Position numbers and translations under genes: made by a program | Virus record (IMG/VR): IMGVR_UViG_3300027977_000029 | Coordinates: 7,704 to 71,703 of that record | Source of the DNA: a virus | Strand: one strand, 5' to 3' | Length of the DNA stretch: 64,000 bases | The notes under the pieces: generated by a model | Seen by the model: the letters and a program-made list of their open reading frames with translations, nothing else | Databases searched by the model: none | Told to the model about the DNA's origin: nothing | Shown here: piece after piece, positions 1 through 57,574 of the stretch | Numbering within the stretch: the stretch's first letter is position 1 | Layout: the number at the start of each line of letters is the position of its first letter

Positions 1-317
1 CTATCCATGACGCCTTCTTTACTAATGCAGCTGATATGCTTCAAGCCAGAACTGCCCTCCGTAAAATCTACGCAAGAGCTCTGAGAGGTGAATCTGTAAA
101 GAAGACCCTGGACGAGATGCGCGCGAGAGGTTTACCTAAAGAAGTCTATGATAAGTTTCTTGAAGAAGCTATTGAAAAGGGCTTGATCCCTGTCGTAGGA
201 AAATCTAGAATAGGTGGTAGGCTAATTGATGAGTCTGATATACTAACTACAGACGACATCTTGCAAGAAGTTCCATCCGATTTCGTAAGTGATTACGGTT
301 GGTATGGTGTAGGCTAG
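1..317 (+). CDS. C-terminal fragment of a probable second single-subunit (T7-type) RNA polymerase, 5' truncated by the window edge; candidate virion RNAP
   Basis: The frame of ORF 36..317 is open from position 3 and reads IHDAFFTNAADMLQARTALRKIY. This aligns with T7 RNAP motif C IHDSFGTIPADAANLFKAVRETM and with the in-window RNAP IHDSYGALLGDVEGLFILVRETF. It ends in SDYGWYGVG versus SDYCFV in the in-window RNAP. Confidence 0.65.
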   Translation, partial: IHDAFFTNAADMLQARTALRKIYARALRGESVKKTLDEMRARGLPKEVYDKFLEEAIEKGLIPVVGKSRIGGRLIDESDILTTDDILQEVPSDFVSDYGWYGVG

Positions 318-320: not shown

Positions 321-338
321 ACCCCGTTAATTTAACCC
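321..338 (+). promoter_or_regulatory. Class A motif (AMCCCGTTAWDTTARCCC), putative phage RNAP promoter for the head genes
   Basis: ACCCCGTTAATTTAACCC; one of five intergenic copies in the same orientation. Confidence 0.75.
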
Positions 339-421: not shown

Positions 422-1078
422 ATGGCGGACGAAAATACCGATCCCAATACCACAGCAGACCCGGTTGTTGATACTCCAGCAGCTGATTCCGGTGATCTTG
501 ATAAGAAGATCCAGGAAGCTGTAGATGCCCAACTCGCTTCAATTAAGTCTAAGCTCGATAGTGCTTATGCTCAGCGTGACGAAGCTCTTGTTAAACTTAA
601 GACAAAAGAGCAGGCTGAACATGAAGCTGAACTTAAGAGATTAGAAGACGAAGGAAAGCATAAAGAACGCTTCGAGTTGCTGATGGCCGAAGCTAACGCT
701 GCCAACAAGGCATTGGAAGCTGAAAACCTCAAACTCAAGCGTGATACTCAAGTAACTGCTGCCATGCAGACTGTTTCTTTACGGAACGACGCTGCACAAG
801 AAATGGCGGCTGCTACGATCACTAAGAATCTTGTTCAGGATTCTAATGGCAATTGGGTGTCCAAAGATGGTAAGTCGATCAAAGATTATGTCAAGACATT
901 CTTTGACGATGAGTCTAACGCTTTCTTGTTGAAGCCTAAGGTTTCTAGAGGTTCGGGTACCAGTTCGCTCCAGCCCCAAGTTGATGAGCCGTCCACTAGG
1001 CCGCTCTTTGAGAGATCCCAAGCCGATGTGCTTAAGGATGTCCAAGAGGGTAGGCTTAAAAGGACCAAACCTACCTAG
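422..1078 (+). CDS. Capsid scaffolding protein
   Basis: Acidic N-terminus, long coiled coil, directly upstream of the capsid gene. Confidence 0.75.
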   Translation: MADENTDPNTTADPVVDTPAADSGDLDKKIQEAVDAQLASIKSKLDSAYAQRDEALVKLKTKEQAEHEAELKRLEDEGKHKERFELLMAEANAANKALEAENLKLKRDTQVTAAMQTVSLRNDAAQEMAAATITKNLVQDSNGNWVSKDGKSIKDYVKTFFDDESNAFLLKPKVSRGSGTSSLQPQVDEPSTRPLFERSQADVLKDVQEGRLKRTKPT

Positions 1079-1087: not shown

Positions 1088-2269
1088 ATGACTGTTGTCA
1101 CAAATTTGGCGGGTGCTTCAACCGAAGTCCTGCAGGAAACCCTCGGCGTTTATTCCGACGAGGCGTACACCAATGCTCGTAAGCTCTCGGGCACTGGTAT
1201 TGTCGGCTCTAACCCGGACATTGACCGTAATACTGAAACCTTTATTGGTCAAATGCGCTGGCACAAGCCTCTGAACCCCACGATCAACGTGGCTTCGTTG
1301 ACTGACTCGACCAACGGTACCAAGACTTCTTACAGCTCAGACTACCTGAGCTACATTAAGACTGTCCGTACCCACGGTGCCGAGAAGGTCAACATGCAAA
1401 AGGTCGTCACTCAAGTTGACGGCCTCGCGAAGATCGGTAGAGACTTTGGTGAAACTCGCGCCCAAGACGAACATAATGCTATTATGGCCGTCCTCAAGGG
1501 TGTCGCTATCGCTGAAGCTCTGAACGGTGCTGCTACCGGTTCTGGAGCTACAGGTCTGGGTGGTCAAACCTTCGAGAATGACCCGACAGATAAGAAGTTC
1601 GGTTTCTATGTGGACCTCGGTTCAGACGCCGCTGTTGTTGATGCTACGGCGTCAGTTCAGGGCGCTGCTCGTGCTGAAGGCTTCATGGAAGCTATGGGTA
1701 AGGCGTGGAAGGACTATGAGCCTGAGTACGCTTACCTGATCACCTCTCCGGCTGTCATGGCTTCGCTGCGTTCAGCCAATCTGGTTGACCAAGATCGAGT
1801 CACTGATGGTAACGTCAACTTCAACACTATCTTCCAAGGTAAGCTGCGTCTGATCCAGACTCGTGCGGGCCAGTCGATGTCTTCAGCGGAATTGACCAAG
1901 ATCAATACCGGTGCTGGCGTTGATATTGTTGGTACTAAGACTTCCTTCATCGTGCTTCCGGGTGCGATGGCTATGGAAGCCCTGGACGTTCCGGATGATG
2001 TTGAAATCACCCGTGACGGTAACGCTTACAAGGGCGGTGGTACTACTGCTATCTGGTATCGTTGGGGTTATATCCTGCAACCTGCGGGCTATGACTGGAA
2101 CGGTCTCGAAACAGAGTTCCCGTCGGATGCTTCTTACAAGTTCTCCGTTGAATCTGGTACTCCGGCTGCGCTCACTGGTGTCACGACCATTGCTAACGCT
2201 CGTGGTACCTGGGATCGTAAGGCTTCTTCGGCTCTCAGCCTGGGCATCCTCCCGATCTTCCACAGCTAA
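1088..2269 (+). CDS. Major capsid protein
   Basis: 393 aa, strongly biased codons, lies between scaffold and head-tail genes. Confidence 0.8.
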   Translation: MTVVTNLAGASTEVLQETLGVYSDEAYTNARKLSGTGIVGSNPDIDRNTETFIGQMRWHKPLNPTINVASLTDSTNGTKTSYSSDYLSYIKTVRTHGAEKVNMQKVVTQVDGLAKIGRDFGETRAQDEHNAIMAVLKGVAIAEALNGAATGSGATGLGGQTFENDPTDKKFGFYVDLGSDAAVVDATASVQGAARAEGFMEAMGKAWKDYEPEYAYLITSPAVMASLRSANLVDQDRVTDGNVNFNTIFQGKLRLIQTRAGQSMSSAELTKINTGAGVDIVGTKTSFIVLPGAMAMEALDVPDDVEITRDGNAYKGGGTTAIWYRWGYILQPAGYDWNGLETEFPSDASYKFSVESGTPAALTGVTTIANARGTWDRKASSALSLGILPIFHS

Positions 2270-3130: not shown

Positions 3131-3521
3131 TCAAATAGAGACTGATATCTTCTCTATATTTGATAGCGTGGAATGGAAGGCACTAAGTCTAAATACGTAC
3201 CCTTCTAACTTCATAGCCGCTAACACGACTAGGGAGTTTATTAGAGTATCTATTATACCTAGTGGCTCGGGTATCAATTTGAAATCTAGTTCTGGAGTTC
3301 TCCAGGCAGAGATATTCATAGCATCTGGTGCTGGTCCAAAAAGAGTATCTGTACTTGCAGATCATTTGGACGAATTCTTAGCGGGTAAGAGTAAACTAGT
3401 TGCGGGTAGAACTACCCAATTCTTAGGGAGCTCTTTGTCGCTAATTGGTACAGATCCAAAGAATTCAGCTTTGTATAAAGCCCTCTACACCATACCATTC
3501 AACCACTTTGGAAGTATGTGA
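3117..3521 (+). CDS. Tail terminator/completion protein
   Basis: Size, position before the tail tube gene, C-terminal YTIPF strand. Confidence 0.6.
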   Translation: MGKYSQIETDIFSIFDSVEWKALSLNTYPSNFIAANTTREFIRVSIIPSGSGINLKSSSGVLQAEIFIASGAGPKRVSVLADHLDEFLAGKSKLVAGRTTQFLGSSLSLIGTDPKNSALYKALYTIPFNHFGSM

Positions 3522-4102
3522 TGACTCACATTTCGTCTATCTCGGCCGGTATCTTCTCGGACCTGTCGATCCACGTTCCGTCCACTCAGTTGACAACCAC
3601 TGACTGGGACGGTCTTGATGAAACTGAACTGAAGGCTCTGTTTGCCACCGAAGTTGCCTACAACGGTACTGCGGCGGCTGCCAAGTTTGTTCGTGTTGAA
3701 AACGTTCGGGAGTTCCCTTCGATGGGTACGCCTCCGAACATTGTTAACGTTCCTGTCTATGGTTCGGCGACCTCACAACAAATCCAAGGGCAATCAGATG
3801 CACCCACCCTGGAACTCACCCTCAACTATATCCCGCTGCACTGGGCCGAAGGCACGCTGCTTGGAAACATGGTTGGCGACGGTATCCAACGGGTTTATCG
3901 ATTTGCCCTGCTGGGGTCTGATCCGACGAGCTTTGCGTCCGCCACCGGTGGACTTGGCACGGTTCAGAATAGCCAGTTCTTCTGGTTTGGTAAAATGGAA
4001 GCTCTGCAGTTCTCGCCGCAGCTTACTGATGCCAACACGGCCACACTGACTCTGTCGATCCAGTCAGAGTTCAAGGGTGCTTACACGAGCGCCCCCGCCT
4101 AA
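3521..4102 (+). CDS. Major tail tube protein
   Basis: VREFPSMGTPPNIVNVPVYG...GQSDAPTLELTLNY siphovirus tube pattern; high-expression codons. Confidence 0.8.
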   Translation: MTHISSISAGIFSDLSIHVPSTQLTTTDWDGLDETELKALFATEVAYNGTAAAAKFVRVENVREFPSMGTPPNIVNVPVYGSATSQQIQGQSDAPTLELTLNYIPLHWAEGTLLGNMVGDGIQRVYRFALLGSDPTSFASATGGLGTVQNSQFFWFGKMEALQFSPQLTDANTATLTLSIQSEFKGAYTSAPA

Positions 4103-5351: not shown

Positions 5352-5383
5352 AAACCCGCTAGTTTAACCGCTAGCGGGTTTTA
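5352..5383 (+). terminator. Hairpin upstream of the tape measure gene overlapping a degenerate class A motif
   Basis: AAACCCGCTAG/CTAGCGGGTTT 11-bp inverted repeat; 5353-5370 reads AACCCGCTAGTTTAACCG. Confidence 0.55.
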
Positions 5384-5398
5384 AATGCAGAGGTTGTA

Positions 5399-8300
5399 AT
5401 GACTGGCGTAATTATTGACGTCAAGACCAAAGCAGACTCTGCCAATGCTGAGCTTAACAGACTTAATCTGAACTTGATGAATATCGTCAAGTCTGGAAAT
5501 TTGTCTAATAAAGCTCTAGGGCAGATCTCTGCCGCTAGGTTCAAGGGAGTCACAAGTGAGACTCAAGCTGCTACCAAAGCTGTTAAGGCGTTTGGTACAG
5601 AAAGTAGAAACAGTGTAAACAGCGCGAACTCTAGTGCTGCTACACTGGCCAGGACGATGAATTCCGTAAAGGCGGCTGCTGCTGGCGCTGTAGTTGCTTT
5701 TGCTGCCTTTAAAAGCACTCAGGGTTTACTAGCTGCCAGTGATGGATTGACTAATATCCAAAACAGATTAAAGCTTGTAAGCGGCTCAATGGATGACTTA
5801 GCAAGACGTCAGAAAGTTTTATTTAAAGTAGCCCAGTCTACTCAAGCTTCTTACGCAGCAACAGCTAATACTTTTGTAGATTTCTCTAAATCTTTGTCAC
5901 GGCTAGGTGCAAGTGAAGCCGATGTTATTAAAGTCGTTAAAACTATCAATCAGGCAGGCGCTCTGTCAGGCAGCTCAATAGAGTCACTTAACGCAGCGAT
6001 GATACAGCTTCAACAAGGTATTTCTGCTGGTGCGCTTCGTGGTGAAGAATTTAACTCGGTTGCTGAACAAAATAAATACCTTATGCTGGAGTTAGCCAAA
6101 GCGACTGGTAAAACAGTTGGTGAATTACGACAGCTTGCCTTTCAAGGACAGTTGACTAGTGATGTTTTGTTTAAAACTATTTTGAAAATCTCTGGGTCTA
6201 CGGATAAGGCTTTTAACTCAACTGTAATAACTTTTTCAAAAGGTACATTTATCTTAAAGCAAAGTATCTCTTATCTGGTTGGTGAGCTTGCCCAATTCAC
6301 TAAGATATCTGAAATTGCAGGCAACTCCGTAGTCAAGATGTCTGCCAGGCTAGATAATTTTTCTCAAAATGTTATTGGCAATTTACGAACTGCTGTAGAG
6401 TACGCTAGCACTTACCTTAGTAAGCTTGCTACAGCAGAGCCGATTAGTCTTAAAACAAAGTTAAGGGTATTCTTCGATAGCAAGGATATTAAAAATAGAT
6501 ACCAGAATGAGATAAAAGAAATACTATTTGCATACTCAGAATTGTTTGGAATTGAAACTAAAATAAAAGCTTCAGGATTAGGTACTTGGGCTCAAAGCTT
6601 CGTCAGCCTTTATGACAACTTTATAGGTAAAACTAAAGATACCCAAAACGCAATCTCAGGATTTCTTCAAGAAATCTTCAGCAGCTCTACAGACGGGGTG
6701 TCTTCAGTTAAGATTACTGTGGAAAAGATACTTAACACAGTAATTGGTATAGTTGGTATCTTTGAGGCTGCGGTTCGACGTGTCTCGTCTTTCTTACCTA
6801 AAATCGTTGCACCGGCTGAAATCTTCCTAGTTAATGTTGCAACATCGATCTACACGATCGTTACTGGGATACGAACAGTTTTGAGAGATGCCTTAAGACC
6901 TACTGTCAGAGATATTCAAGGTATTTTTGAAGGTCTCACTATGTACCTTGTAAGTGACACTAGGATCGAGCGAGCTTTTGTTAAATTGTTTCAGACAGAG
7001 TCGCTAGAGACTTTCACATCACAGTTATTTAAAGTTCGTCAAGCGATTGACTCTGTACGCCTAGGCAGTTTAGAGACTTTATTGTTTAAAGTGGGTTACA
7101 CATTTAGGCGGGCCACTGTTCCTATAGAGTCCTTCTTAATTTCTATCAATTTACTTGACAACAGCATTCTTAGGTTAAATGCGGGCGCAATACAGCGTAT
7201 TGGGATGAGTGTTGACACAATCGTTAGCACAATTAAAATGCTGTACACCGACGTTATCTGGATTGGACTTAAACCTATTTTGGCAAACATAGCTGTCTCT
7301 ATTGTAAACTTTATGGCTGTTGTTACTGATATTATCAACGATACTTTTGACTATAACACTGGTAAATGGATCGGTTCACAGCTAGCAAAAGGTTTTAAAG
7401 CTAGCGCAATGTTATTGAAGAACATCCTTATTGGGATATTTAAACCTGACGATATTATGGGTAAATCAGTCTTTGATCGATTTGTAGACCTAGTCGCTAA
7501 GACCTTGATAGGAGCTTTTAAGAATGTGATTAATTTTACCAGAGGTCTTGTTGCTGGATTCTTTTCGGAAATGAATTTTTCAGTAGACTTGTTTAAGTTC
7601 TTGAACCCCACTGCTTCAGCTTCTGCAGGTTTTAAGAAGCTGGTAGATAACATTTTAGGAGATATCACAGGGCGTCTAGCAACAATCTCAAAGAAACTGT
7701 CAGGTATTTTTGATTTCTCGAAAATTTTAGCGCCTCTAGTGTTCCTTAAAGATTTGTTTTCCACGATATTTAAGTATATCTCAGAGAGTATTGATAAAGT
7801 GTTTGCGGAGCTTTGGGCGAGAGCTAGTACATTTTCATTAAAGTATACCTTCAGTTTAAACACCACACTCTTAGAAGACGGCATTATGATTGCTATTAGG
7901 CTGTTTGAGTCTATCTATTATTTTGCTCGTAACTCAATCAAGAAGACAGAGAAGCTTGTCGAATCCTTTACAAATAACGTAAAAGACATGTTCTTCGATG
8001 TGTACGACAAAGTGGTAGGGCACTCTTACTGGCCGGATATGATTTCCGGAATTAATATGCACACTCGTAGGCTTAATACGAGTGAGGGAATTGTTAAAAG
8101 ATTTATTGAAAAGTTGAAGAGTGCTTTTAAAGAGCTTGGAGAACTGGCTGGTCCAGTTTTCGATAATTTTGGTAGCAGCTTCGGTAACTTAAAACTTGCT
8201 ATTGGTTCTATAGACTATGGTCAAGTTTTGGTGAACTTGCGTGACAGAATTGCGGGCGCACTTGTTGCAGGCTTGCTTATCGGTTTTGGAGGAATGAGAG

Positions 8301-11300
8301 GTAAGCTTTTAGGTTTTGGTTATCTTTTCTCATTCATTACCGACGGTGTTGATAAGGCAATTCTCTCTACACTGCCTACTGTGTCCAAAGTGTTAGGTCA
8401 AATTTCCGCTGATTTCACTAAGTACTTTGTAGATAGCTTTGCTAGAGTTGTGGATGCAGTAATTGTTGTAATTCCTAAGACCTTAGATGCTCTAATTGAA
8501 GGGATCTTTGGGAAGGTTACTCTATTCTTTGCGCATCTTAACCCAATTCTTAGTAGTAAGTTGCTAGCGACTGTAACAGTCATTGGTCTGGCCTTAGCCA
8601 GCATGAGTCGAAATTGGCCTGATACCATCTCTAGCATGATCTTTGGAGAAAAGAACGCTAGAGGTAAAGTAGTCAAAGAAGGTGTCCTTGGGATATTCAA
8701 GGGGTTTACTCCTGCTCCTGGCGAAGGTCTTCTTACTAAACTCTTTGGTGATCGAAAAGAAGCTGCTGCGTTAGGTGTGTTGTTTGCTTCCACTATGGCT
8801 CTAGAAAGTGTTTCAGTATTTGAAGCATTATTTACTGCAGCGCCACTTATGCTGTACGCCCTGCTAGGTCCTGATGCTGGTGCCAGACTCTTGAAAGACG
8901 TTGTGACTAAGTATTTGCCTGCTTTTGCTGGCCAAATGACTTTAGTCATCGCAGGCTTGATGGAAACGGTTGGTTTCACTAGCGGCGCTCAATTCTTAAA
9001 AGGTCTAGTGTCGGGTACTGGTAAAGGTGGCGGAACTATCCGAAAGCTTATTGAAAGCTCTTTTTCAGGATTTAGTGGCTCAAATGTAGTCTCTGGCATC
9101 ACTGCTTACTTTAGTGCTTTGAATACAGGCCTATCCAACTTTAGAAAGAACTCTAAAAACTATGCCTCCGGTGCAATGAGTCTCAGTGAAGCTATTAGAG
9201 ACGCTTCTAAGTCAGACTTTGCAGCAAACCTAGCGAGAAACGCAGCAAGTGCTTATCAAGGCAATGCTGCAGCTATGGCTAAGCCTTTGATGGATCTCAG
9301 ACTAAATTTTAAGAAGATGGGTAATGCAATAGCTATCGATTTTAAGAAGGCTTTAAGTTCGATAAAGACTGCAAAGCTTGGAAGTTCCACGTTCGGCAGT
9401 GTGTTTTCTGAAACGCTCGTTAATGCCCGTGAGTTTTCAAAGCACATGTCTGAGCTATTTTTGAGAGGTGGTATTATTGAAGCTGCTAAAGGTGCGGCTG
9501 AGAAGATTGCTTTCTGGTTCACATCTAGCTTCACTAAGATTTTAGAAGTGGCCGGCCCTTTCATAACCAAGTTTAAATGGCTGATCGCTGGTATTGCAGC
9601 AGCTCTGGTAGCGGCTATAGCATTGATGCCAAAAGATGCATTTGCTGCATCTCTTACAGATCCTGTGGCAGGTGCTGGTGAGGGATTTGCTAAGGCGGCT
9701 CTAGGGATTACTGCCTTTGCTGCAGCTTTGCTCGCTGTAGACCGAGTGATGAAGGGTCTTAACCTCTTCAAGACTCTTAAGGCTAAGGCCACCCAAGAAA
9801 ACTTAGAGACACTCGCGAAACCATTCTTAGACCAACTGGAGACTGCTTCCGCTGCCAGGCTGAAAGACTTTAACTCAAAAGTTAAAGGCCGCGGTAGTGC
9901 TGGTGCTAGAGCTACATTTGAGGCGCTAGAGTCTTCCGCTAGACAAGCTGCCTATCAAGCTGAAATTCAAAGATTAGCTGCAGCGGGTCTCGGTAAAGAG
10001 GGTACTACAAAGGCTAGTCTAAAAGGTATTGCTGCTGAATTTGAAAAGATCGGGGCTAGCATTACGAAGTCTGTGAAAGGTACAGTCTTTAGTAATGTTT
10101 GGTGGTCTACAGTCGGCTCCAGACTTTCAGGCTTGTTTGATAATATCAGTCTTAAGATGAATGGCAAACAAGGGGCTGGTAAGGTTGCAGCTTCTACCGG
10201 GATAGGTGCCTTCTTTGGTGAATTGCTCGGCTCAATGGTTGGTGGAAAACTCTTTAAAGGCTTGTTTAAGAAAGCTCCGACAGGTGCTGCTTCTGGACTG
10301 GCGGGTAAGGCTACTCGGTGGTCACCTGCGATGTCTAAGTATCTGGTGGACGGTCCTTCAAAGGCTGGTGCTAAACTTTTTACAAATCTGAATGGACCTT
10401 TGGTTAAGCTTGCCGCAAAAGGTGGTAGAGTCGGTCTTGTTGTTGGAGGTCTCGCTGCAGGTCTTGCGACACTTGGTGGAGTCTTCACGCTACTTGCGGG
10501 TAAGGGCGAAACTTTTAAAGAGAAGCTTGGTCAGATTTTTGATACTATTAAAGGCTACTTAGGGCTTGCACCTACTAGTCAAGGCGGTCGGGAGGCTGCT
10601 CTTGAGAAGCTGTTAGCCCCTGGGAGATCAAATACTCAAGCTTATAGCTTCGATAGTACTCTTGAGTCCATGAACCTTAAAGATCTTTCAGCTTACGCTA
10701 TGGAAGATCTTACAAGTCTTGCTCAGACCTATTCAGACATTAACAGACAGGCCTTAAAGGAGAGAACGCTCAATGGTCAAATTTCAGGCGAGACTAGCAA
10801 GCAACTAGACATGGCTGCTAAGGCTTTCAATGACGCTGCCATACGTAATGGTGCTAAAGCCTCAGGTGGCATAGGAACCAACAACTATCAAGACTACCTA
10901 AACTCCCAACTTGATCCTTTAATGACTACGTTTAGTTTTATTTCTCAGAGTCTTGAGAGTATGGACAAGTTAAACCTTATTAAATTTGTTCAAGGTATTT
11001 TTGAAAAGAAGACCAAAGAACTCACTGGTGCTGCGGTTGCACTTGCAGGCGGTGTGGTAGTAGGGATAAAAAGCACTATTAAAGATGTAGTCTCTAAGTT
11101 TAAAGAGGGTCTTACAAAAGTTAGCGATGCTGCTAAAAGAGGTTTTATTCTTGCTGGCTTGCGAGCTGGGCCCACAAATTTAGATAAAGGTGTGAGTAGT
11201 AAAGTAAGCAGCCTTATAAAAGAGTTTGGCAAAGATTCTACACTCAAGCTTGATGAAGCTACTCAAAAAGACCTTACTTCAAAGAAACAAGATTATGAGA

Positions 11301-14300
11301 CTAAAGGTTCCGCACGAGCTGCTTTTGTAAATCGTTACGGCATTAATAACGCTATAACAAAAGGTTTTAATGACGCAATAAGCGGAGCAACTGGTGGTAG
11401 AATATCTCCCTTCCAAAAGGATTTGTTAGCGTATCAGACAGAGCTTGCAAAGCTTACTAGAGAAGCTGATACGGCTGCTAAGGCCTACGACAAAACTTTA
11501 GATGTAATTTACGGTAAACTCTATAGAGTGAAACTCAGCGAAACGTTATTTGAAAAAGTTAAAAAGCAAGTTTCAGAAATTAATGCTTCTCTTGAGCTGG
11601 GCTTAGATGAGACTGGTAAAGGCGTATCTTCTGCAATTCTTGCGAAGATGCAAACGCTTGCCACTCTGAATACTGGAGCAGAAAAGGCTTACCTAGCGTC
11701 TGCTTCAGAAGCGGAACGTGATTTTTATTCGGGACTCTCTGTAGTTGCTAAGAGACGTGCTGAAGCCCTGAAGGCATTTTCGGAAAAATCTAACACAATT
11801 ACTGGTCAAGGCGAGCTTCTTGGTGCTAGCTCAGGTGGAGCCTATGGTGTGAGCGACGCTCTCACATTAGACCGTTTCAAGCAAGTTGGAATTAAGGAGA
11901 GTGGTCAAACAATCCTTGAATACACAGCTATTGGAAAGCAATACAAAGAAGTTTTAGAGGATATCGCTAAGTACCAGGCTGACTTAGATAACCCTCAATT
12001 TGGCGGTAACCACCAGGCTGCATTAAAAGGTTTAGTTCAAAAGTATAGAGAGCTTAATCAAGTTATGAGAGGTTCTACACCTTCAATTAAAGGTGTCTCT
12101 GAGGCTCTTGCAGCTGCTGGTTTTGAAGGTGCTAATATTGACCTTATAGCTGGGTTAGATGAGGGTAGAATTAAAAGTCTACAAAGTGGAATTGCTGCGG
12201 TAGCTCAAGAAGCAGAACTATTCGAGCGTGCCAGTAAGAACGCAGGCCTTGACATTAAAGCCCAGATAGACTTTGTCAGACAGCTTAAAGCTGAGATGGC
12301 AGGTCTTCGTCAAGGCTACGCTGAGGCTAAAAACTTTAGACGCTTTTTAATAATGTCTGACCCGAAACTTAGCAAGGTCGACAAAGCGGCCCAACTGGGT
12401 TCAGAAGGTCTGTTAGCGCCACAAGTAGACTTTGGTAAGTTTGTCGGACTTGGTGAAAAATCTAGGCAGCGAGCCCTCGACTATAGTGCTAATTACAATG
12501 CTGCTACTGAGGCTATTGCAAATTTTAAACCGGGTGATAACGAAGATAGTCTAAAGAAAGCTGTAGAAGCGCAGCGTGTTAACGGCAAAGCACTCGAAAA
12601 GATGTTTGCTGAGCCTTCTTCTAGTAGTGGTTCTAGCGATCCTTTCAAATTCTCTGAGATGCTTTCAATCCTTCAAGAGACAGGCTTTGCTATTGATGCT
12701 CTGGGCTTTAGTAAGTTAGGCGCGACCGCAAGAAAAGAGCTTGCAAGCATTGCCACTGAGATGAGCATTATCGATGATAGAATCGAGAAAGCTACTCCGG
12801 GCGCTGATCTTATGGAATCTCTCGAAAAGAGAGCTGCTCTACTCAAGAAAGCTCTTGACAAAGTCTTTGACAGCTTTAAAACTTCAGGTGCAATGCTGAA
12901 GAGTGGCTTGGATGAAATGGGAATCTCTGATGCTTCAGCAATGAACTTAGAAGTGTCGAGTCTTTCTGATTTGTTCGAACTCTACAAGAAGTCTAAGAAG
13001 GCTAAGTTTGAGTTTAACACTGCTGGCAGCTACGAGACCCAACTGGCAGCTCTAAGAGAGATGGTTAAGAGTGAGCGGGCTGTAGCTAAAGCAGCTATGC
13101 TCGTCAATGATTCCTTCCAGGATCGTCTCAGCCTTGTTAATGAGATGTTTAACACAGACTTTGCCCTGGAAGACTTCGCCACTGTGTTTGCTGATACCAG
13201 GGAAGAGTGGTATAAGCTTGCTGTATTCCTTAAGACTGAGCTTGACAGTATTGAAGCTATCGGTAAGAGCCAAACAGGTTACACTGTTGAACAGCTCAGC
13301 AATATGCAAAGAATGGTGGCTCAAGCCGCTTCTCTTGAAGGTATTATGGCGAAAGCCGGTACTGCTCTCAAGACTTCTTTGAATCTCTCAACAGATGAGA
13401 TGTTTGAGACTATCAAAAGTAACTTTGCCGAACTAGAGCTCAGTGATAACGATATGTTCCGTATCCCGGCCTCTCAACGTCGTCAGATGGTTGAAGATGC
13501 CACTAGGATGGGTGCACTTGTTGAACTTAGCAAACTTCAAGTAAGTTCAGGAATGGCAAAAATCTTAGACGACTTTGCTAAAGCTAATGATCGTTCTTCT
13601 TCTGCTATTAAAGCTGCCTTTGATAAGATGCGTATTGAGGCTTCTAAGCTTACGGGTGAAACAGCTGAGAAGTTCAAGAATCTCTTAGATCCTGCTGGTC
13701 AGAGAACTCCTGAGCTCAATGCAGCTGAGGGTACTGAGAGAAACACAGCAGACATAGTCAAGATCCTTAGCGGTATGAAGCCTGGTGATCTTGCTTCAGG
13801 TGTTGGATCTGGCATTGGCAGAGGCACTTCAGTTCTTAAAAGATTTATCAAGGCTGATACTTCAGTAGAGCCCCTCACAGTAACTGCCGCGAAATCTCTA
13901 GACACTCCTAACAGCCCTAGTTTGATGTCAGTCGATGACGCCACTCAGCAGTTCCTCAGAAAGCAGTCAGACCTTAAAGAACTATACAAGCTGTTTAACA
14001 GAAGTTCTTTCGATTCGGCCACTAGACCTGGGGTTGGCTTAGACGACACTACAGCAGGACTGGCTACAGAAGCTCAACTTCAGAACTATATAGCTGTGAG
14101 AGAAAAGTTCTTAGCACTCACCGAGCAGCTTGAGCTTCTCAGAATTGGTGGCTTTAACAACGATGCTTTGGCTAAACAAGTTGATGATTTCAGGTATGCT
14201 TTAGAGCGGCTTCCTGATGTTATTACGAAGAACATCAACGCAGCCAGAGAAGCTGGTAAGTCACTTGCTGATGGGATGAATAGCACTTTCAAGGATACTC

Positions 14301-15226
14301 TAAAGGGAGTTTTCAAAGGTGAGAAAGGTCCTGGAGAAATCCTCCCGGCACTCCTCAACGAGTTTACCAGCAAGATGGTGGACACCTTTGTTGACAACTT
14401 GACAGAACAATTTTTAGGTGAAGGTTCTGGACTTTATGCCCTATTTGAACAGATAGGCTCTGGCGTTGCTAAAGGCTCTCAGACAATTGGTGGTGGTATT
14501 GCTAAGCGTACTGATGGTCCTGGCTTTGGTATAGCCGACATGCTCTCCAAGTTCATGTCAGGTGGATCACCCTCCGGTGGGCACGCCGGTGGGATTAAGC
14601 CTAGCCAGAATCTTTTAAGCAACGCGCTTAACACTAACTTTGCCGCTCCTGCTGAAGATCTTGCAAACATTACCAGCTCTGCTATGCCTGCGCTTAGCTC
14701 ACACATTGGCGAGTCTTTCCCAAAACTTACTTCTTCAGTGACAGACTTAAGTAAGAACCTAGGAGGCGCTGCCGGTACAGCTGCTGGCGGTGCAGGAGGT
14801 CTTGGTGTCGGTATGTGGGGAGCCCTTGGTGGCATCTTCGGCACACTCATTGCCGGTATGTTTGCTGGAGGCGGTAAGATCGTCGGCCCTGGAACCGGTA
14901 CTTCTGATTCAATCCTTGCAGGTGTTTCTAATGGTGAGTTTATTGTTAATGCGGCTTCAACTAAGAAGTACGGCAGAGTTCTAGAAGCTATTAACTCTAA
15001 TTCCTTAAAGGCTTATGCTGAAGGTGGCTATGTTGGAAACCTTATGATGGGTTCCACACCGCTAAGTGAGAAAGCTGTCACTCAGGCTTCTAGAGATAGG
15101 GCTACAGTAGTGAACCTTCAGATAACTGGGGACATCTCCAGGCAGACCAGGAGTGAAGTCTTCAAAATGCTTCCCGCAATTGCGAATGGCGTTAATGGCC
15201 ATAACAGAGAGCAAGGTGTGAAATAA
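5399..15226 (+). CDS. Tape measure protein (3275 aa)
   Basis: N-terminal tape measure domain (QLQQGISAGALRGEEFNSVAEQ); C-terminal FAGGG.I.GPGTGTSDSI...SNGEFIVNA; follows the chaperones. Confidence 0.93.
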   Translation: MTGVIIDVKTKADSANAELNRLNLNLMNIVKSGNLSNKALGQISAARFKGVTSETQAATKAVKAFGTESRNSVNSANSSAATLARTMNSVKAAAAGAVVAFAAFKSTQGLLAASDGLTNIQNRLKLVSGSMDDLARRQKVLFKVAQSTQASYAATANTFVDFSKSLSRLGASEADVIKVVKTINQAGALSGSSIESLNAAMIQLQQGISAGALRGEEFNSVAEQNKYLMLELAKATGKTVGELRQLAFQGQLTSDVLFKTILKISGSTDKAFNSTVITFSKGTFILKQSISYLVGELAQFTKISEIAGNSVVKMSARLDNFSQNVIGNLRTAVEYASTYLSKLATAEPISLKTKLRVFFDSKDIKNRYQNEIKEILFAYSELFGIETKIKASGLGTWAQSFVSLYDNFIGKTKDTQNAISGFLQEIFSSSTDGVSSVKITVEKILNTVIGIVGIFEAAVRRVSSFLPKIVAPAEIFLVNVATSIYTIVTGIRTVLRDALRPTVRDIQGIFEGLTMYLVSDTRIERAFVKLFQTESLETFTSQLFKVRQAIDSVRLGSLETLLFKVGYTFRRATVPIESFLISINLLDNSILRLNAGAIQRIGMSVDTIVSTIKMLYTDVIWIGLKPILANIAVSIVNFMAVVTDIINDTFDYNTGKWIGSQLAKGFKASAMLLKNILIGIFKPDDIMGKSVFDRFVDLVAKTLIGAFKNVINFTRGLVAGFFSEMNFSVDLFKFLNPTASASAGFKKLVDNILGDITGRLATISKKLSGIFDFSKILAPLVFLKDLFSTIFKYISESIDKVFAELWARASTFSLKYTFSLNTTLLEDGIMIAIRLFESIYYFARNSIKKTEKLVESFTNNVKDMFFDVYDKVVGHSYWPDMISGINMHTRRLNTSEGIVKRFIEKLKSAFKELGELAGPVFDNFGSSFGNLKLAIGSIDYGQVLVNLRDRIAGALVAGLLIGFGGMRGKLLGFGYLFSFITDGVDKAILSTLPTVSKVLGQISADFTKYFVDSFARVVDAVIVVIPKTLDALIEGIFGKVTLFFAHLNPILSSKLLATVTVIGLALASMSRNWPDTISSMIFGEKNARGKVVKEGVLGIFKGFTPAPGEGLLTKLFGDRKEAAALGVLFASTMALESVSVFEALFTAAPLMLYALLGPDAGARLLKDVVTKYLPAFAGQMTLVIAGLMETVGFTSGAQFLKGLVSGTGKGGGTIRKLIESSFSGFSGSNVVSGITAYFSALNTGLSNFRKNSKNYASGAMSLSEAIRDASKSDFAANLARNAASAYQGNAAAMAKPLMDLRLNFKKMGNAIAIDFKKALSSIKTAKLGSSTFGSVFSETLVNAREFSKHMSELFLRGGIIEAAKGAAEKIAFWFTSSFTKILEVAGPFITKFKWLIAGIAAALVAAIALMPKDAFAASLTDPVAGAGEGFAKAALGITAFAAALLAVDRVMKGLNLFKTLKAKATQENLETLAKPFLDQLETASAARLKDFNSKVKGRGSAGARATFEALESSARQAAYQAEIQRLAAAGLGKEGTTKASLKGIAAEFEKIGASITKSVKGTVFSNVWWSTVGSRLSGLFDNISLKMNGKQGAGKVAASTGIGAFFGELLGSMVGGKLFKGLFKKAPTGAASGLAGKATRWSPAMSKYLVDGPSKAGAKLFTNLNGPLVKLAAKGGRVGLVVGGLAAGLATLGGVFTLLAGKGETFKEKLGQIFDTIKGYLGLAPTSQGGREAALEKLLAPGRSNTQAYSFDSTLESMNLKDLSAYAMEDLTSLAQTYSDINRQALKERTLNGQISGETSKQLDMAAKAFNDAAIRNGAKASGGIGTNNYQDYLNSQLDPLMTTFSFISQSLESMDKLNLIKFVQGIFEKKTKELTGAAVALAGGVVVGIKSTIKDVVSKFKEGLTKVSDAAKRGFILAGLRAGPTNLDKGVSSKVSSLIKEFGKDSTLKLDEATQKDLTSKKQDYETKGSARAAFVNRYGINNAITKGFNDAISGATGGRISPFQKDLLAYQTELAKLTREADTAAKAYDKTLDVIYGKLYRVKLSETLFEKVKKQVSEINASLELGLDETGKGVSSAILAKMQTLATLNTGAEKAYLASASEAERDFYSGLSVVAKRRAEALKAFSEKSNTITGQGELLGASSGGAYGVSDALTLDRFKQVGIKESGQTILEYTAIGKQYKEVLEDIAKYQADLDNPQFGGNHQAALKGLVQKYRELNQVMRGSTPSIKGVSEALAAAGFEGANIDLIAGLDEGRIKSLQSGIAAVAQEAELFERASKNAGLDIKAQIDFVRQLKAEMAGLRQGYAEAKNFRRFLIMSDPKLSKVDKAAQLGSEGLLAPQVDFGKFVGLGEKSRQRALDYSANYNAATEAIANFKPGDNEDSLKKAVEAQRVNGKALEKMFAEPSSSSGSSDPFKFSEMLSILQETGFAIDALGFSKLGATARKELASIATEMSIIDDRIEKATPGADLMESLEKRAALLKKALDKVFDSFKTSGAMLKSGLDEMGISDASAMNLEVSSLSDLFELYKKSKKAKFEFNTAGSYETQLAALREMVKSERAVAKAAMLVNDSFQDRLSLVNEMFNTDFALEDFATVFADTREEWYKLAVFLKTELDSIEAIGKSQTGYTVEQLSNMQRMVAQAASLEGIMAKAGTALKTSLNLSTDEMFETIKSNFAELELSDNDMFRIPASQRRQMVEDATRMGALVELSKLQVSSGMAKILDDFAKANDRSSSAIKAAFDKMRIEASKLTGETAEKFKNLLDPAGQRTPELNAAEGTERNTADIVKILSGMKPGDLASGVGSGIGRGTSVLKRFIKADTSVEPLTVTAAKSLDTPNSPSLMSVDDATQQFLRKQSDLKELYKLFNRSSFDSATRPGVGLDDTTAGLATEAQLQNYIAVREKFLALTEQLELLRIGGFNNDALAKQVDDFRYALERLPDVITKNINAAREAGKSLADGMNSTFKDTLKGVFKGEKGPGEILPALLNEFTSKMVDTFVDNLTEQFLGEGSGLYALFEQIGSGVAKGSQTIGGGIAKRTDGPGFGIADMLSKFMSGGSPSGGHAGGIKPSQNLLSNALNTNFAAPAEDLANITSSAMPALSSHIGESFPKLTSSVTDLSKNLGGAAGTAAGGAGGLGVGMWGALGGIFGTLIAGMFAGGGKIVGPGTGTSDSILAGVSNGEFIVNAASTKKYGRVLEAINSNSLKAYAEGGYVGNLMMGSTPLSEKAVTQASRDRATVVNLQITGDISRQTRSEVFKMLPAIANGVNGHNREQGVK

Positions 15227-15816: not shown

Positions 15817-16403
15817 TGAGAGCATTGTCAGGTAATTTATCAAGAATTATGGATACAGATGCTCCTGAGCTTCTATTGCTCGTACGAATTGAAGACGCTG
15901 CTGGGAGTCTTATTTTAGGCTCTACTTCACACTATGATACTATAACTCTTTCAAACGGCTGGAGTTACGCTTCAAATGGGATCTTGCTAAGTCTTGACCC
16001 TCCTCAACAAACTACAGTGGTCACTAGAGAGCAGTATAAGATATCTTTGGTAGACTCGGATGGGGGTTTGAGAAGCTACGGAGAGAGTTCTCTTTTCGGT
16101 AAGAAACTAGATGTCAGGTTGAGTGCGATGGATCCACTTACTGGCTTACCTTTAACGACTCTCTCAGACCTGTTTGTAATTTATAGAGGTCGTATCAACA
16201 GTGTGAACAGTCGAATTGTGTCTACAGAGATTGGGGAATCAACTCTCAATATCTCTGGTTCAAGTCCCGTAATGAGCCTTGAAATGAAGAATGGTATCTT
16301 CTTCAGTAAAGAAGAAATGCGTCAACGTAGCGGTAACGATTCTTGTGCAGATGATCTGTATGAAGGTTCTGGAGCCACAGTCCTTAAATGGGGTAAAGCG
16401 TAA
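15816..16403 (+). CDS. Tail hub/minor tail protein
   Basis: IYRGRI motif, C-terminal LKWG, synteny. Confidence 0.6.
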   Translation: MRALSGNLSRIMDTDAPELLLLVRIEDAAGSLILGSTSHYDTITLSNGWSYASNGILLSLDPPQQTTVVTREQYKISLVDSDGGLRSYGESSLFGKKLDVRLSAMDPLTGLPLTTLSDLFVIYRGRINSVNSRIVSTEIGESTLNISGSSPVMSLEMKNGIFFSKEEMRQRSGNDSCADDLYEGSGATVLKWGKA

Positions 16404-24500: not shown

Positions 24501-24559
24501 AATTCCTGACAAACTTGCACAATACTCTTAGAAACGAGGGACTAACAATCTGGTCGGTC

Positions 24560-24577
24560 AACCCGTTAAATTAGCCC
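24560..24577 (+). promoter_or_regulatory. Class A motif upstream of the lysis genes
   Basis: AACCCGTTAAATTAGCCC. Confidence 0.7.
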
Positions 24578-24634
24578 AGGGTCCCTCCCCTAAGATAATA
24601 GTAGTCAGTAGTAACCCATTACTAAGAGAATCTC

Positions 24635-25763: not shown

Positions 25764-25788
25764 GCGGAAATCTATCCATCTTATATGA
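25764..25788 (+). promoter_or_regulatory. Class B motif (GCSGRAAWYYWYCCATCTTATATGA), putative early promoter
   Basis: GCGGAAATCTATCCATCTTATATGA; three ungapped copies. Confidence 0.7.
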
Positions 25789-25850
25789 AAGGCTCTCTAA
25801 GAGTCTCTAACCGTACCTTGGATGAGGTACTCAACAGGAGGAATCCTAAA

Positions 25851-30064: not shown

Positions 30065-30089
30065 GCGGGAAATCTTCCATCTTATATGA
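30065..30089 (+). promoter_or_regulatory. Class B motif, putative early promoter
   Basis: GCGGGAAATCTTCCATCTTATATGA. Confidence 0.7.
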
Positions 30090-30109
30090 AAGTCCTAGAA
30101 AGGTCTAAT

Positions 30110-30975: not shown

Positions 30976-31110
30976 ATGATAGTACTTGCAGGAATACTCG
31001 TGATGGGAGCCTTGGTGCTCTGCTATAGACTTCTGAACGGTATTCTTGCAAGCGTGTTTGTGAGCCTGGTAATCTCTATCGGGCTAGGTTTTATTCTGAG
31101 AGATAGATAA
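30976..31110 (+). CDS. Small membrane protein (44 aa) translationally coupled to the RNAP gene
   Basis: MIVLAGILVMGALVLCYRLLNGILASVFVSLVISIGLGFILRDR; TAATG overlap with the RNAP start. Confidence 0.5.
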   Translation: MIVLAGILVMGALVLCYRLLNGILASVFVSLVISIGLGFILRDR

Positions 31111-34285: not shown

Positions 34286-34303
34286 AACCCGTTATATTAA
34301 CCC
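34286..34303 (+). promoter_or_regulatory. Class A motif upstream of the SSB/replication genes
   Basis: AACCCGTTATATTAACCC. Confidence 0.75.
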
Positions 34304-47865: not shown

Positions 47866-47883
47866 AACCCGTTAAGTTAACCC
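47866..47883 (+). promoter_or_regulatory. Class A motif
   Basis: AACCCGTTAAGTTAACCC. Confidence 0.75.
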
Positions 47884-50007: not shown

Positions 50008-50032
50008 GCCGGAATTCTCCCATCTTATATGA
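50008..50032 (+). promoter_or_regulatory. Class B motif
   Basis: GCCGGAATTCTCCCATCTTATATGA, upstream of a GGAGG RBS. Confidence 0.7.
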
Positions 50033-50051
50033 TAACCATGGAGGTTGATCA

Positions 50052-57556: not shown

Positions 57557-57574
57557 ACCCCGTTATATTAACCC
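57557..57574 (+). promoter_or_regulatory. Class A motif upstream of the packaging genes
   Basis: ACCCCGTTATATTAACCC. Confidence 0.75.

Follow-up and report, generated by a model that had tools for sequence, protein, structure and literature searches.

The DNA analysed here (the window: 64,000 nt, positions 7704-71703 of a 71,703-bp virus record in IMG/VR) begins inside a coding frame, and its first 317 bases raise the question of what protein ends there and where that protein might act. A preliminary description proposed that the frame was open from base 3, ahead of the methionine at base 36 given by the ORF track, and that it encoded the end of a T7-type RNA polymerase (RNAP), possibly fused to a minor head domain and carried in the virion of a siphovirus. 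Reading of the plus-strand frame confirmed that it is open from base 3 through to a stop codon at 315-317 and that the methionine at base 36 is internal. The upstream DNA continued in the same frame back to a GTG at genome position 3365, placing the gene start 4,338 bases before window base 1 and resulting in an ORF of 1551 aa (genome 3365-8020). The translation of window bases 3-317 starts IHDAFFTNAADMLQARTALRKIY and ends FVSDYGWYGVG. Within the window, the gene is represented by a single feature:

3..317, + strand, C-terminal 104 residues (aa 1448-1551) and stop codon of the 1551-aa protein, hereafter MuF-RNAP, by frame reading and profile alignment

The full protein (about 175 kDa by arithmetic) was divided into a MuF module (aa ~1-350), a linker (aa 351-357), a helical region (aa ~358-564) and a T7-like RNAP (aa ~565-1551). 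The gene encodes a MuF head module and a complete T7-like RNAP as one polypeptide of 1551 aa.

The 104-aa window piece alone gave no significant Pfam match (best E=0.063), so it is the recovered upstream sequence that carries the RNAP call. When the full ORF was searched, PF00940 (RNA_pol) and Phage_Mu_F both scored above their cut-offs, and these were the only Pfam families found in the protein, with no peptidase match. PF00940 was matched at E=3.5e-10 (39.7 bits, cut-off 22), or at 42.1 bits in a genome-level search with same-frame matches summed, and the phrog_414 'RNA polymerase' profile was matched at E=1.1e-16. Since a single-sequence PDB search with the full protein yielded only a marginal match to N4 RNAPII (E=0.81), a family profile was built from 55 relatives. 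This profile matched T7 RNAP at E=1.4e-22 (whole sequence). For mitochondrial RNAPs E was about 1e-16, and for the N4 RNAPII subunits 2.5e-06 and 0.0012; N4 vRNAP was absent from its matches at E<=1.

The likeness to T7 motif C that had first drawn attention to the locus is not due to chance, as the family profile aligned this stretch to T7 RNAP ALIHDSFGTIPADAANLFKAVRETM, with H1449 and D1450 (window bases 6-11) opposite T7 H811 and D812. In the same alignment, H1424 and D1427 lay opposite H784 and D787 of the T7 HSxD element. Motifs A and B were both found in the upstream sequence. Motif A reads LALEQD(1020)ASSSGAQ, aligned to T7 LPLAFD(537)GSCSGIQ, and its Asp was present in 55/55 aligned rows. 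Motif B reads R1082-K-A-A-K1086-A-Q-N-M-V-T-F-Y1094-G1095 and aligns to motif B of N4 RNAPII; its T7 counterparts are R627, K631, Y639 and G640. Residues D1020, K1086, Y1094, G1095, D1427 and D1450 were invariant in all 39 full-length relatives. The motif C His was replaced by Tyr or Phe in the five most divergent relatives, which are also without a PF00940 match. At the DxxGR palm element (T7 D421-W-R-G-R), the window protein has DHRVR, keeping the Asp and both Arg and losing the Gly; close relatives have DHRAR or DHRGR, and most distant ones have DxRGR. The spacing from motif A to motif C is 430 residues, compared with 275 in T7.

An AlphaFold model of aa 352-1551 (pLDDT 84.7, pTM 0.81) was compared with known structures. 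All rows shown by Foldseek were T7 or mitochondrial RNAPs, with E values down to 1.3e-17. Structural alignment with VIA-align gave Z=29.3 for T7 RNAP (rmsd 3.5 A over 525 residues; model residues 219-1200 against T7 42-883), 26 for mitochondrial RNAPs, 18.7 for N4 mini-vRNAP and 12.2 for full N4 gp50; identity to T7 in structural alignments was 13-17%. Collectively, these data identify aa ~565-1551 (~990 residues) as a complete T7-like single-subunit DNA-dependent RNA polymerase, and the conserved residues indicate that it is apparently catalytically competent.

The fusion to a minor head domain was likewise borne out. PF04233 (Phage_Mu_F) matched aa 145-252 at E=4.7e-15 (56.7 bits, cut-off 29.6), and phrog_241 'head morphogenesis' matched aa 5-364 at E=3.8e-66. 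A further 1142 phage records matched aa ~5-350 only; their genes are listed as encoding head-morphogenesis or minor head proteins. Invariant residues of the module are L216, D217, T220, C224, P241, P242, H244, C247, R248, S249 and P253. A predicted model of aa 1-620 (pLDDT 85.4) found no PDB fold match at E<=0.001, including for the helical region at aa ~358-564, and placed a low-confidence linker at aa 351-357 between the MuF module and the remainder. The assignment of aa ~1-350 as a Phage_Mu_F/SPP1-gp7 head-morphogenesis module is thus based on sequence, owing to the lack of a fold match for the N-terminal 620 residues. A complex prediction pairing the portal (518 aa, 18-row alignment) with MuF aa 1-351 (39-row alignment) scored 0.00 against a mark of 0.32, in a run that had no controls. 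Three published studies propose that the C-terminal passengers of MuF/gp7-like proteins, such as toxins, are taken up into the capsid and delivered at infection (PMC6316719, PMC5576092, PMC5512222).

The gene had been described as lying just upstream of the scaffold gene, and the recovered sequence shows the portal gene (phrog_145, E=5.8e-52) on its other side. A gap of 24 nt separates the end of the portal gene from the MuF-RNAP start codon, and the same order, portal followed by MuF-RNAP, is seen in EBPR siphovirus 1 and DSS3_VP1. By a simple ORF filter, an ORF of 506-536 aa lies directly upstream in 19/32 loci, and 17 of these 19 align to the portal at 47-59% identity. Downstream, the head and tail genes are arranged as follows:

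422..1078, + strand, head scaffolding protein (phrog_206, E=3.6e-06)
1088..2269, + strand, major head protein (phrog_247, E=2.3e-17)
3518..4102, + strand, major tail protein (phrog_158, E=6.8e-08)
5399..15226, + strand, tail tape measure protein, 3275 aa (phrog_3519, E=6.3e-57)

The major tail and tape measure genes, together with a gene for a distal tail protein, agree with the initial view of the phage as a siphovirus, and the Pfam and PHROG matches of the genome's ORFs included no tail-sheath and no integrase family. The same two collections gave no prohead protease family among the ORFs scanned. The genome also carries a lysis cassette (a 178-aa gene and an M15 endolysin) and a replication module (SSB-like protein, DNA polymerase A, exonuclease, primase-helicase, RNR and ligase). 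Because the terminase block continues across the record's junction to the portal and MuF-RNAP genes, MuF-RNAP was placed in a late structural transcription unit.

The phage encodes another RNAP, as the preliminary description had noted:

31110..33341, + strand, second, canonical T7-like RNAP, 743 aa (PF00940 E=2.3e-67; phrog_414 E=1.7e-117)

The two enzymes are distinct: BLASTP between them was barely significant, and profile-profile comparison related them at 99.2% probability with 18% identity. The 743-aa enzyme is presumed to be the non-virion RNAP. A canonical RNAP of 735-926 aa accompanied MuF-RNAP in 9/9 complete or near-complete genomes checked, comprising the window's genome, DSS3_VP1 and all seven searchable related genomes. 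EBPR siphovirus 1, the record of which is a partial 54-kb sequence, has MuF-RNAP only.

Relatives of MuF-RNAP were found in at least 595 of 599 IMG/VR candidate stretches, and both Pfam domains were present in 114/120 protein clusters among the matches listed. In 32/32 IMG/VR loci with full flanks, the gene is one uninterrupted ORF of 1534-1789 aa. Phage_Mu_F was detected at E<=0.001 in all 23 long, distant representatives, above the cut-off in 21 of them. Thus, the fusion is conserved down to ~20% identity. MuF-RNAPs of 1264-1307 aa also occur and may represent a second, independent fusion. EBPR siphovirus 1 has the fusion too, as do two cultured roseophages that infect Ruegeria pomeroyi DSS-3, DSS3_VP1 and DSS3_PM1. 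Its annotation in these phages is as a head protein only, and the roseophage protein carries the accession QGH74596.1. In EBPR siphovirus 1, an HNH-bearing group I intron in the motif B codons splits the gene (gp47, gp49). The samples that yielded the clade came from lake, wastewater and marine sources, and window positions 24401-34400 were contained in 13 lake-water DNA sequencing runs, with no RNA run among the runs listed. A scan of bacterial and archaeal genomes returned two loci only, both from the same MAG and one of them a 74-kb contig, with no sign of a prophage and no firm host.

The clade includes the dU-DNA Naomiviridae. In the DSS3 phages, dU takes the place of dT, and a putative cytosine deaminase is encoded (PMC8323127). 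The Pfam and PHROG matches of the window genome's ORFs contain no deaminase family, and dU-DNA is not claimed for this phage. Neither 'RNA polymerase' nor 'RNAP' appears in the main text of either of the two Naomiviridae papers. A search of abstracts and main-text passages outside subscription journals gave no description of the MuF-RNAP fusion, which the supplementary gene tables of PMC8323127 or architecture files of PMC5512222 could still mention.

Two classes of conserved promoter-like motif were found in the window:

323..338, + strand, class II motif CCCGTTAATTTAACCC, 6 nt past the MuF-RNAP stop codon and 84 nt before the scaffold ATG
24562..24577, + strand, class II motif upstream of the lysis cassette
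25776..25791, + strand, class I AT-rich motif CCATCTTATATGAAAG at the start of the small-gene block after the lysis genes
30077..30092, + strand, class I motif ~1 kb upstream of the second RNAP gene
34288..34303, + strand, class II motif ahead of the replication module
47868..47883, + strand, class II motif, from the motif scan
50020..50035, + strand, class I motif with 2 mismatches, inside the tRNA region
57559..57574, + strand, class II motif ahead of the terminase block

The class II motif (CCCGTTAAATTAACCC) occurs at five sites in the window, compared with 0.32 expected, and is conserved in relatives, lying 4-9 nt past the MuF-RNAP stop codon in 21/32 of them. The class I motif (containing GTATCTTATATGAAAG) occurs at three sites, compared with 0.56 expected, and its copy at 30077..30092 is the conserved promoter-like motif nearest upstream of the second RNAP gene. 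Relatives have 15 plus-strand copies, each located 0.9-4.5 kb ahead of the second RNAP gene, and the copies occur in 8/8 close relatives for which 900 nt or more of upstream sequence was available. A scan over all 13 loci gave 16 matches, against a shuffle mean of 1.6. The class I core, of ~17 nt, is nearly invariant between phages whose second RNAPs are only 53-59% identical. It contains TATATGA with a loose TTGCG-like element upstream; inspection of the class I sequences revealed no hexamer pair with good -35/-10 spacing. With the two classes assigned to enzymes by position, they fit a cascade from a virion RNAP to the second RNAP. Alternatively, host RNAP could recognise the class I sites, and the class II copy directly past the stop codon could have another role.

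Other candidate elements were set aside. A weak class II match at window position 5355 is an intrinsic-terminator-like hairpin. A 27-nt repeat, AGCCCTGAACATGGCTCTAAACTGTTC, was considered as an N4-type hairpin promoter and rejected for its weak hairpins (z -0.2 to -1.1). Given these hairpins, the position of its copies just past gene ends, the T-rich DNA that follows in the three copies viewed in context and its absence from relatives at up to 6 mismatches, the repeat is treated as a candidate terminator-like element.

Together, these findings lead us to favour, as rather probable, a model in which MuF-RNAP is docked through its MuF module, packaged in the capsid and injected, and transcribes from class I motifs, after which the 743-aa RNAP transcribes from class II motifs. 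By analogy with SPP1 gp7, the MuF module would dock the protein on the portal during procapsid assembly, and a few copies would then be enclosed in the capsid. At infection, MuF-RNAP would exit with the DNA through the portal and the long tail and then refold; a protein of ~175 kDa would presumably cross this very long, non-contractile tail unfolded. For the first genes to be expressed, the virion RNAP would use the AT-rich class I motifs that head the small-gene block and precede the second RNAP gene. Once made, the 743-aa RNAP would in turn read the class II motifs before the replication, lysis and structural units, and these units would include the MuF-RNAP gene itself, supplying protein for loading into progeny capsids. 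The phage and hundreds of its relatives thus probably package a polymerase of their own in the capsid and start infection by injecting it. For the wider proposal, that a cosmopolitan clade of long-tailed phages ejects a portal-tethered T7-type RNAP and runs a two-RNAP programme independent of host RNAP, we consider the balance to be slightly in favour.

Several other explanations were weighed against this model. It is extremely improbable that the long ORF is an artefact of two neighbouring genes joined by assembly or gene calling: the annotation of the EBPR siphovirus 1 gene as two CDSs, which would suit this view, is accounted for by the intron with its HNH gene, and the ORF is uninterrupted in all 32 independent IMG/VR loci and in the isolate genome DSS3_VP1. 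That the RNAP-like region is an inactive relic, serving only as a structural or pilot protein, would be consistent with its weak similarity to canonical RNAPs (39.7 bits for PF00940; 13-17% identity to T7) and with the five most divergent relatives, in which Y/F-D replaces H-D in motif C and PF00940 is unmatched. However, both catalytic Asp residues, the motif B Lys, Tyr and Gly and D1427 are invariant in 39/39 relatives, and the homing group I intron of EBPR siphovirus 1 sits exactly in the motif B codons. Homing introns choose sites of this kind because such sites cannot drift, and we regard a relic as very improbable.

A polymerase that stays in the producing cell is a less remote alternative, although still an unlikely one. 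Here MuF would be used late, in head assembly, and the RNAP, acting as the fusion or after proteolytic release, would serve as a second late-gene polymerase that is never delivered. In favour of this view, the gene is part of a late structural unit preceded by a class II motif, and the low-confidence linker in the model (aa 351-357) could be a cleavage site. Some phages may process their MuF proteins, and the RNAP may be cut free within the producing cell. Against this, there is no obvious reason to maintain a covalent portal-targeting tether at ~20% identity unless the polymerase is capsid-borne, a canonical RNAP is already present alongside only two conserved promoter-like motif classes, and the ORFs scanned include no prohead protease family. 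Distinctly unlikely, in our view, is that MuF-RNAP is packaged and ejected for another job, pulling the genome in or priming replication, with host RNAP reading the early genes. RNAP-driven entry of DNA into the cell is known from T7, the evidence for packaging is the same as for the favoured model, and the TTGCG-like element and TATATGA core of class I could suit a host sigma factor. Yet the near-invariant ~17-nt core is typical of single-subunit RNAP promoters and not of sigma-70, the promoter spacers of which drift; class I has no well-spaced -35/-10 hexamer pair; and the genome already has a primase-helicase gene.

Few phage lineages are known to package an RNA polymerase in the virion, and each has taught something new about transcription and about the passage of large proteins through tails. 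If the favoured model of a MuF-docked, injected RNAP is correct, polymerase delivery would have evolved independently in a fourth way, beyond those of N4, the crAss-like and jumbo phages, and P23-45, and a siphovirus would for the first time be seen to deliver a T7-like enzyme. The passengers of the MuF system, so far tied to toxins, would also include core life-cycle enzymes. A compact (~990-aa), deeply divergent branch, presumably with new promoter specificities, would be added to the single-subunit RNAPs, and the takeover of cells by widespread environmental phages without the host polymerase would be accounted for. Since the cultured roseophages DSS3_VP1 and DSS3_PM1 belong to the family, the prediction is open to direct bench test.

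Comparison with known systems supports MuF-RNAP as a new form of the virion-RNAP theme, with packaging as the inferred step. As set out in PMC4496689 and PMC5512222, gp50 of N4 (Schitoviridae) is a late-encoded, T7-like capsid RNAP that is injected for early genes and is followed by N4 RNAPII. MuF-RNAP resembles it in being a T7-like single-subunit RNAP encoded among late genes of a phage with a second RNAP, and we infer that it is likewise packaged. According to PMC5512222, N4 gp50 has ~3500 aa, with an N-terminal region that serves injection and a C-terminal region that serves encapsidation and bears a zincin-like peptidase. In contrast, MuF-RNAP lacks this architecture: it has 1551 aa, its RNAP is C-terminal to a MuF module and it has no Pfam peptidase match. 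N4 is short-tailed, whereas the window's phage is long-tailed, and in the predicted model the polymerase domain is not closest to N4 mini-vRNAP, its fold being nearer to T7 RNAP (Z 29) and the mitochondrial RNAPs (Z 26) than to N4 vRNAP (Z 12-19).

Thermus phage P23-45 is likewise a siphovirus with an RNAP fused to a structural protein and with a non-virion RNAP, and delivery would be a shared feature. The P23-45 enzymes, however, are two-barrel RNAPs on the tape measure inside the tail, whereas MuF-RNAP is a T7-like right-hand polymerase on a portal-associated MuF module of the capsid interior. With SPP1 gp7 and the MuF toxins, MuF-RNAP shares the N-terminal module and a gene position right after the portal gene. 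MuF polymorphic toxins have a C-terminal toxin domain beside an immunity gene and belong to temperate phages. In contrast, the passenger of MuF-RNAP is a polymerase and not a toxin or host-modifying enzyme; the C-terminus is an RNAP, the next gene is the scaffold and no integrase was found among the Pfam and PHROG matches. In PMC5576092, 'polymerase' does not appear in the main text. T7 RNAP is the best structural and sequence-profile match, sharing the same motifs and a full N-terminal domain. T7 RNAP is a free early protein of 883 aa, made after infection from host-transcribed mRNA, whereas MuF-RNAP has an extra ~565 N-terminal residues and is encoded in the head module.

In the window, an open + strand frame runs from base 3 to a stop at 315-317, starting IHDAFFTNAADMLQARTALRKIY... 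and ending ...SDYGWYGVG, exactly as read in the preliminary description. The virus record spans 71,703 bp, of which the window covers 7704-71703. The frame extends into the upstream 7.7 kb, where a GTG (genome 3365) opens a single 1551-aa ORF (genome 3365-8020) termed MuF-RNAP; the window covers residues 1448-1551 only. This visible piece alone gave no significant Pfam match. When the full ORF was searched, two Pfam domains, Phage_Mu_F and RNA_pol, exceeded their curated cut-offs, and PHROGs assignments to head morphogenesis and RNA polymerase agreed with them:

Family matches in MuF-RNAP
aa 145-252, Phage_Mu_F (Pfam), E=4.7e-15, 56.7 bits against a cut-off of 29.6
RNA_pol PF00940 (Pfam), E=3.5e-10, 39.7 bits against a cut-off of 22
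aa 5-364, phrog_241 'head morphogenesis' (PHROGs), E=3.8e-66
around aa 1010-1129, phrog_414 'RNA polymerase' (PHROGs), E=1.1e-16
around aa 1010-1129, phrog_2051 'RNA polymerase' (PHROGs), E=6.4e-10

MuF-RNAP belongs to both PF00940 and PF04233, and it is almost certainly a genuine fusion with a functional-looking polymerase. The earlier call of a T7-type polymerase, made from 104 visible residues, and the suggested fusion to a minor head domain were both upheld by these matches.

With a profile built from 55 relatives of MuF-RNAP, E-values were 1.4e-22 for T7 RNAP, about 1e-16 for mitochondrial RNAPs, and 2.5e-06 and 0.0012 for the two N4 RNAPII subunits. In the profile alignment, D1020 was equivalent to T7 D537, H1424/D1427 to H784/D787, and H1449/D1450 to H811/D812. 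The T7 DWRGR element and specificity-loop region were also covered; the window's protein reads DHRVR, and distant relatives DxRGR. R1082/K1086/Y1094/G1095 are presumably the counterparts of R627/K631/Y639/G640 in T7 numbering. Among 39 full-length relatives, aligned at identities down to about 20%, the invariant columns formed two groups: a MuF signature (L216, D217, T220, C224, P241, P242, H244, C247, R248, S249 and P253) and a polymerase set (D1020, K1086, Y1094, G1095, D1427 and D1450). Motifs A and B, which lay beyond the window, were recovered in the full protein, with D1020 opposite its T7 counterpart and K1086, Y1094 and G1095 invariant. The motif C His was replaced by Tyr or Phe in five very divergent relatives.

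An AlphaFold2 model of aa 352-1551 (55-row alignment) had a mean pLDDT of 84.7 and a pTM of 0.81. Foldseek returned 74 PDB matches at E<=0.001 (best E 1.3e-17), and all of those listed were T7 or mitochondrial RNAPs. In the structural comparison proposed earlier, VIA-align superposed the model on T7 RNAP with Z 29.3 (rmsd 3.5 A over 525 residues; model 219-1200 against T7 42-883), on yeast and human mitochondrial RNAPs with Z up to 26.4, on N4 mini-vRNAP with Z 18.7 and on full-length N4 gp50 with Z 12.2. On the strength of these matches, aa ~565-1551 make up a complete T7-type polymerase that has its N-terminal domain as well, and the fold is nearer to those of T7 and mitochondrial RNAPs than to that of the N4 virion RNAP. 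The distance between motifs A and C is 430 residues in MuF-RNAP compared with 275 in T7, so the fingers contain additional helical segments. When aa 1-620 were modelled separately (pLDDT 85.4, pTM 0.58), confidence dropped at aa 351-357, where the MuF module gives way to a helical region; this model had no PDB match at E<=0.001.

The distribution of the fusion was examined by several searches. By tblastn against 50,697 phage records, 1142 matched aa ~5-350 only, the genes concerned being labelled head morphogenesis or minor head protein, and full-length matches were found in only four records, from three phages. A query with aa 600-1551 of 5.8 billion clustered proteins recovered 374 clusters at E<=0.001 among 8000 candidates scored. 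Both Pfam domains were present in 114 of the 120 clusters listed; the six with PF00940 only were all shorter than full-length proteins, four being below 1,100 aa. Exhaustive phmmer with aa 560-1551 against 1.84 billion representatives gave 154 matches at E<=0.001, many of them fragments. Phage_Mu_F lay near aa 125-260 in all 23 long matches scanned (above cut-off in 21), and PF00940 reached E<=0.001 in 18 of them. The IMG/VR scan yielded at least 595 relatives among 599 candidate stretches. Full flanks were available for 32 loci, and in all 32 MuF-RNAP was a single ORF of 1534-1789 aa. The window's DNA was present in 13 lake-water DNA runs.

Among named phages, relatives were found in EBPR siphovirus 1 (58% identity) and in roseophages DSS3_PM1 and DSS3_VP1 (29-31%), where the gene sits between the portal and coat genes and is annotated 'head protein', 'minor head protein-like protein' or 'head morphogenesis'. 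In EBPR siphovirus 1 (JF412302.1, positions 6179-7126), the homologous gene is split exactly within motif B, exon 1 ending ...KAQNMV and exon 2 starting TFYGAGERTG. The insert carries the HNH endonuclease gene gp48 and a match to group I intron family RF00028 (E=1.4e-08; 40.5 bits, below the gathering score of 50), and GenBank lists the halves separately as 'head protein' and a hypothetical protein. Five close relatives (P0032, P0011, P0065, P0080 and P0099; 1626-1699 aa) are 75-150 aa longer, P0032 having an extra ~130 aa directly before motif A; Pfam found no domain for the extra length and no intein in any of the five. Two of the long matches scanned for domains, P0250 (1307 aa) and P0262 (1264 aa), are shorter MuF-RNAP fusions with a much stronger PF00940 match of about 91 bits; they may be intermediate in form or may have arisen by a second fusion event, independent of the first.

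At the record's end (71570-71703), its opening 134 bases occur again. This redundancy gives the contig the look of a full, closed genome of about 71.6 kb, despite the record's 'linear' class; the ORF that is already open at genome position 1 has its earlier part at the other end of the record. By a simple ORF call, nearly all genes lie on the + strand, in the following order:

Gene order
window 58595, terminase large subunit, then several tail-fibre-like genes
genome 1785-3341, portal gene, past the record junction
MuF-RNAP, scaffold, major head protein, adaptor
major tail protein, 3275-aa tape measure (window 5399-15226), distal tail protein, 2635-aa tail protein (window 16403-24310)
178-aa gene and M15 endolysin
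about 5 kb of small genes
window 31110-33341, +, second RNAP, 743 aa, PF00940 E=2.3e-67
SSB-like protein, DNA polymerase A, exonuclease, primase-helicase, class II RNR, ligase
window 49287-54009, tRNA region, five tRNAs (Thr-TGT, Ser-TGA, Met-CAT, Leu-TAA, Arg-TCT; ARAGORN and Rfam), dispersed among small genes

No sheath family was found among the family matches of the genome's ORFs, and the siphovirus reading thus stands. By the usual length rule, a tape measure of this size implies a tail of several hundred nm. Just upstream of it, at window 5352-5385, CCCGCTAG...CTAGCGGG forms a perfect GC-rich hairpin of 8 bp; with the TTTT that comes after it, this looks like an intrinsic terminator within the tail operon. 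The 2635-aa tail protein gene contains four ~261-nt tandem repeats (19742-20631). Two small + strand genes were noted at window 25851-26165 (104 aa, strong AGGAGG site) and 26185-26343 (52 aa), where the longest-ORF caller favours minus-strand ORFs (25797-26207 and 25498-25779) that are probably spurious. Two tandem pairs of paralogous small genes lie at 28440-29185 and 53178-53921; one pair (128 and 125 aa) belongs to phrog_17693, and the other (123 and 123 aa) shares a 127-nt repeat at 84% identity.

As claimed at the outset, the fragment is distinct from the polymerase at 31110-33341. BLASTP aligned the two only over a doubtful stretch (best E=8e-04), and profile-profile comparison gave a probability of 99.2% (E=1.4e-19; 573 columns, 18% identity). 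Judged by sequence, the two polymerases are homologous yet very distant. Both were present in the window's genome, in DSS3_VP1 and in all seven related IMG/VR genomes searched; the partial 54-kb record of EBPR siphovirus 1 shows the fused polymerase only. In DSS3_VP1 (MN602266.1), the open frames are 1510 aa for MuF-RNAP and 735 aa for the canonical RNAP (PF00940 E=1.3e-82). This roseophage has dU-DNA, and the main text of the paper describing it is silent on both RNAPs. A phage-borne polymerase could matter for reading such DNA, with the dU phages PBS2 and AR9 as a parallel.

Repeat analysis and scans revealed two promoter-like motif classes, all on the + strand between + strand genes. Class II, CCCGTTA-N2-TTAACCC, had five window sites (0.32 expected by chance), and class I, ..GCG(G/C)-N8-9-(G)TATCTTATATGAAAG.., had three (0.56 expected):

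Promoter-like sites, all +
class II, directly after the MuF-RNAP stop, ahead of scaffold
class II, ahead of the lysis cassette
class II, ahead of the replication module
class II, window 47868
class II, ahead of the terminase/portal/MuF-RNAP block
class I, start of the small-gene block
class I, 1 kb upstream of the second RNAP gene
class I, tRNA region

Class II lay 4-9 nt past the MuF-RNAP stop in 21 of 32 relatives and was found again in 6 of the 13 second-RNAP loci that were retrieved. Class I occurred as 15 + strand copies in relatives, all 0.9-4.5 kb upstream of that gene, and was present in all eight close loci with at least 900 nt of upstream sequence; the three distant loci had none on the + strand. 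Across the 13 loci there were 16 class I matches; shuffled sequences gave a mean of 1.6 and a maximum of 5. To our eye, the long, nearly invariant cores resemble promoters of single-subunit RNAPs more than sigma-70 promoters.

A separate 27-nt repeat, AGCCCTGAACATGGCTCTAAACTGTTC, has six + strand copies (window 25729-25755, 26352-26378, 30811-30837, 30843-30869, 30900-30926 and 52802-52828); three form a tandem array shortly before the second RNAP gene. Copies directly follow gene ends, with T-rich DNA after the three viewed in context. The repeat has two overlapping stems (AGNC/GNCT and GAACA/TGTTC) with compensatory changes between copies; predicted hairpins were weak (z -0.2 to -1.1), and a search of relatives that allowed as many as 6 mismatches found no copy. 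The repeat may make a phage RNAP pause or terminate, and its core, AAACTGTT / ATCTGT, may echo the T7 class II terminator.

Domain architecture, intact catalytic residues and late-module position are established, as are the facts that the fusion is conserved and that a second RNAP occurs with it. In the proposed model, the polymerase would enter the capsid as cargo of the MuF module. The parallels with N4 and P23-45 and the motif positions suggest that MuF-RNAP, once ejected, would read class I sites; the sole conserved motif ahead of the second RNAP gene is of this class. The enzyme made from that gene would then read class II sites, serving replication, lysis and structural genes. We consider packaging with a role in early transcription reasonably likely; the specific assignment of class I to the virion RNAP and class II to the second RNAP is more tentative. 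Wherever it could be tested, the initial inference of a MuF-fused, T7-type, probably virion-borne polymerase has been borne out.

The accessible part of Iyer et al. (PMC5512222) describes MuF fused to enzymatic effector domains and does not mention an RNAP passenger. The word 'polymerase' is absent from the main text of the MuF-toxin paper (PMC5576092), as is RNA polymerase from the main texts of the Naomiviridae papers, and no description of a MuF-RNAP was found in the main texts of the open-access literature. Both Pfam domains are already listed in precomputed database annotations of these proteins; the architecture has thus been latent in databases and, as far as is visible, apparently never interpreted. 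MuF-RNAP would represent a new and widespread form of the virion-RNAP theme, and the cultured roseophages permit bench testing. In its proposed working, it is likened to the N4 virion RNAP and the tape-measure-fused RNAP of P23-45, yet it belongs to neither of these families: the gp50 architecture of N4 is missing and its polymerase is closer to T7, and the P23-45 enzymes are two-barrel RNAPs.
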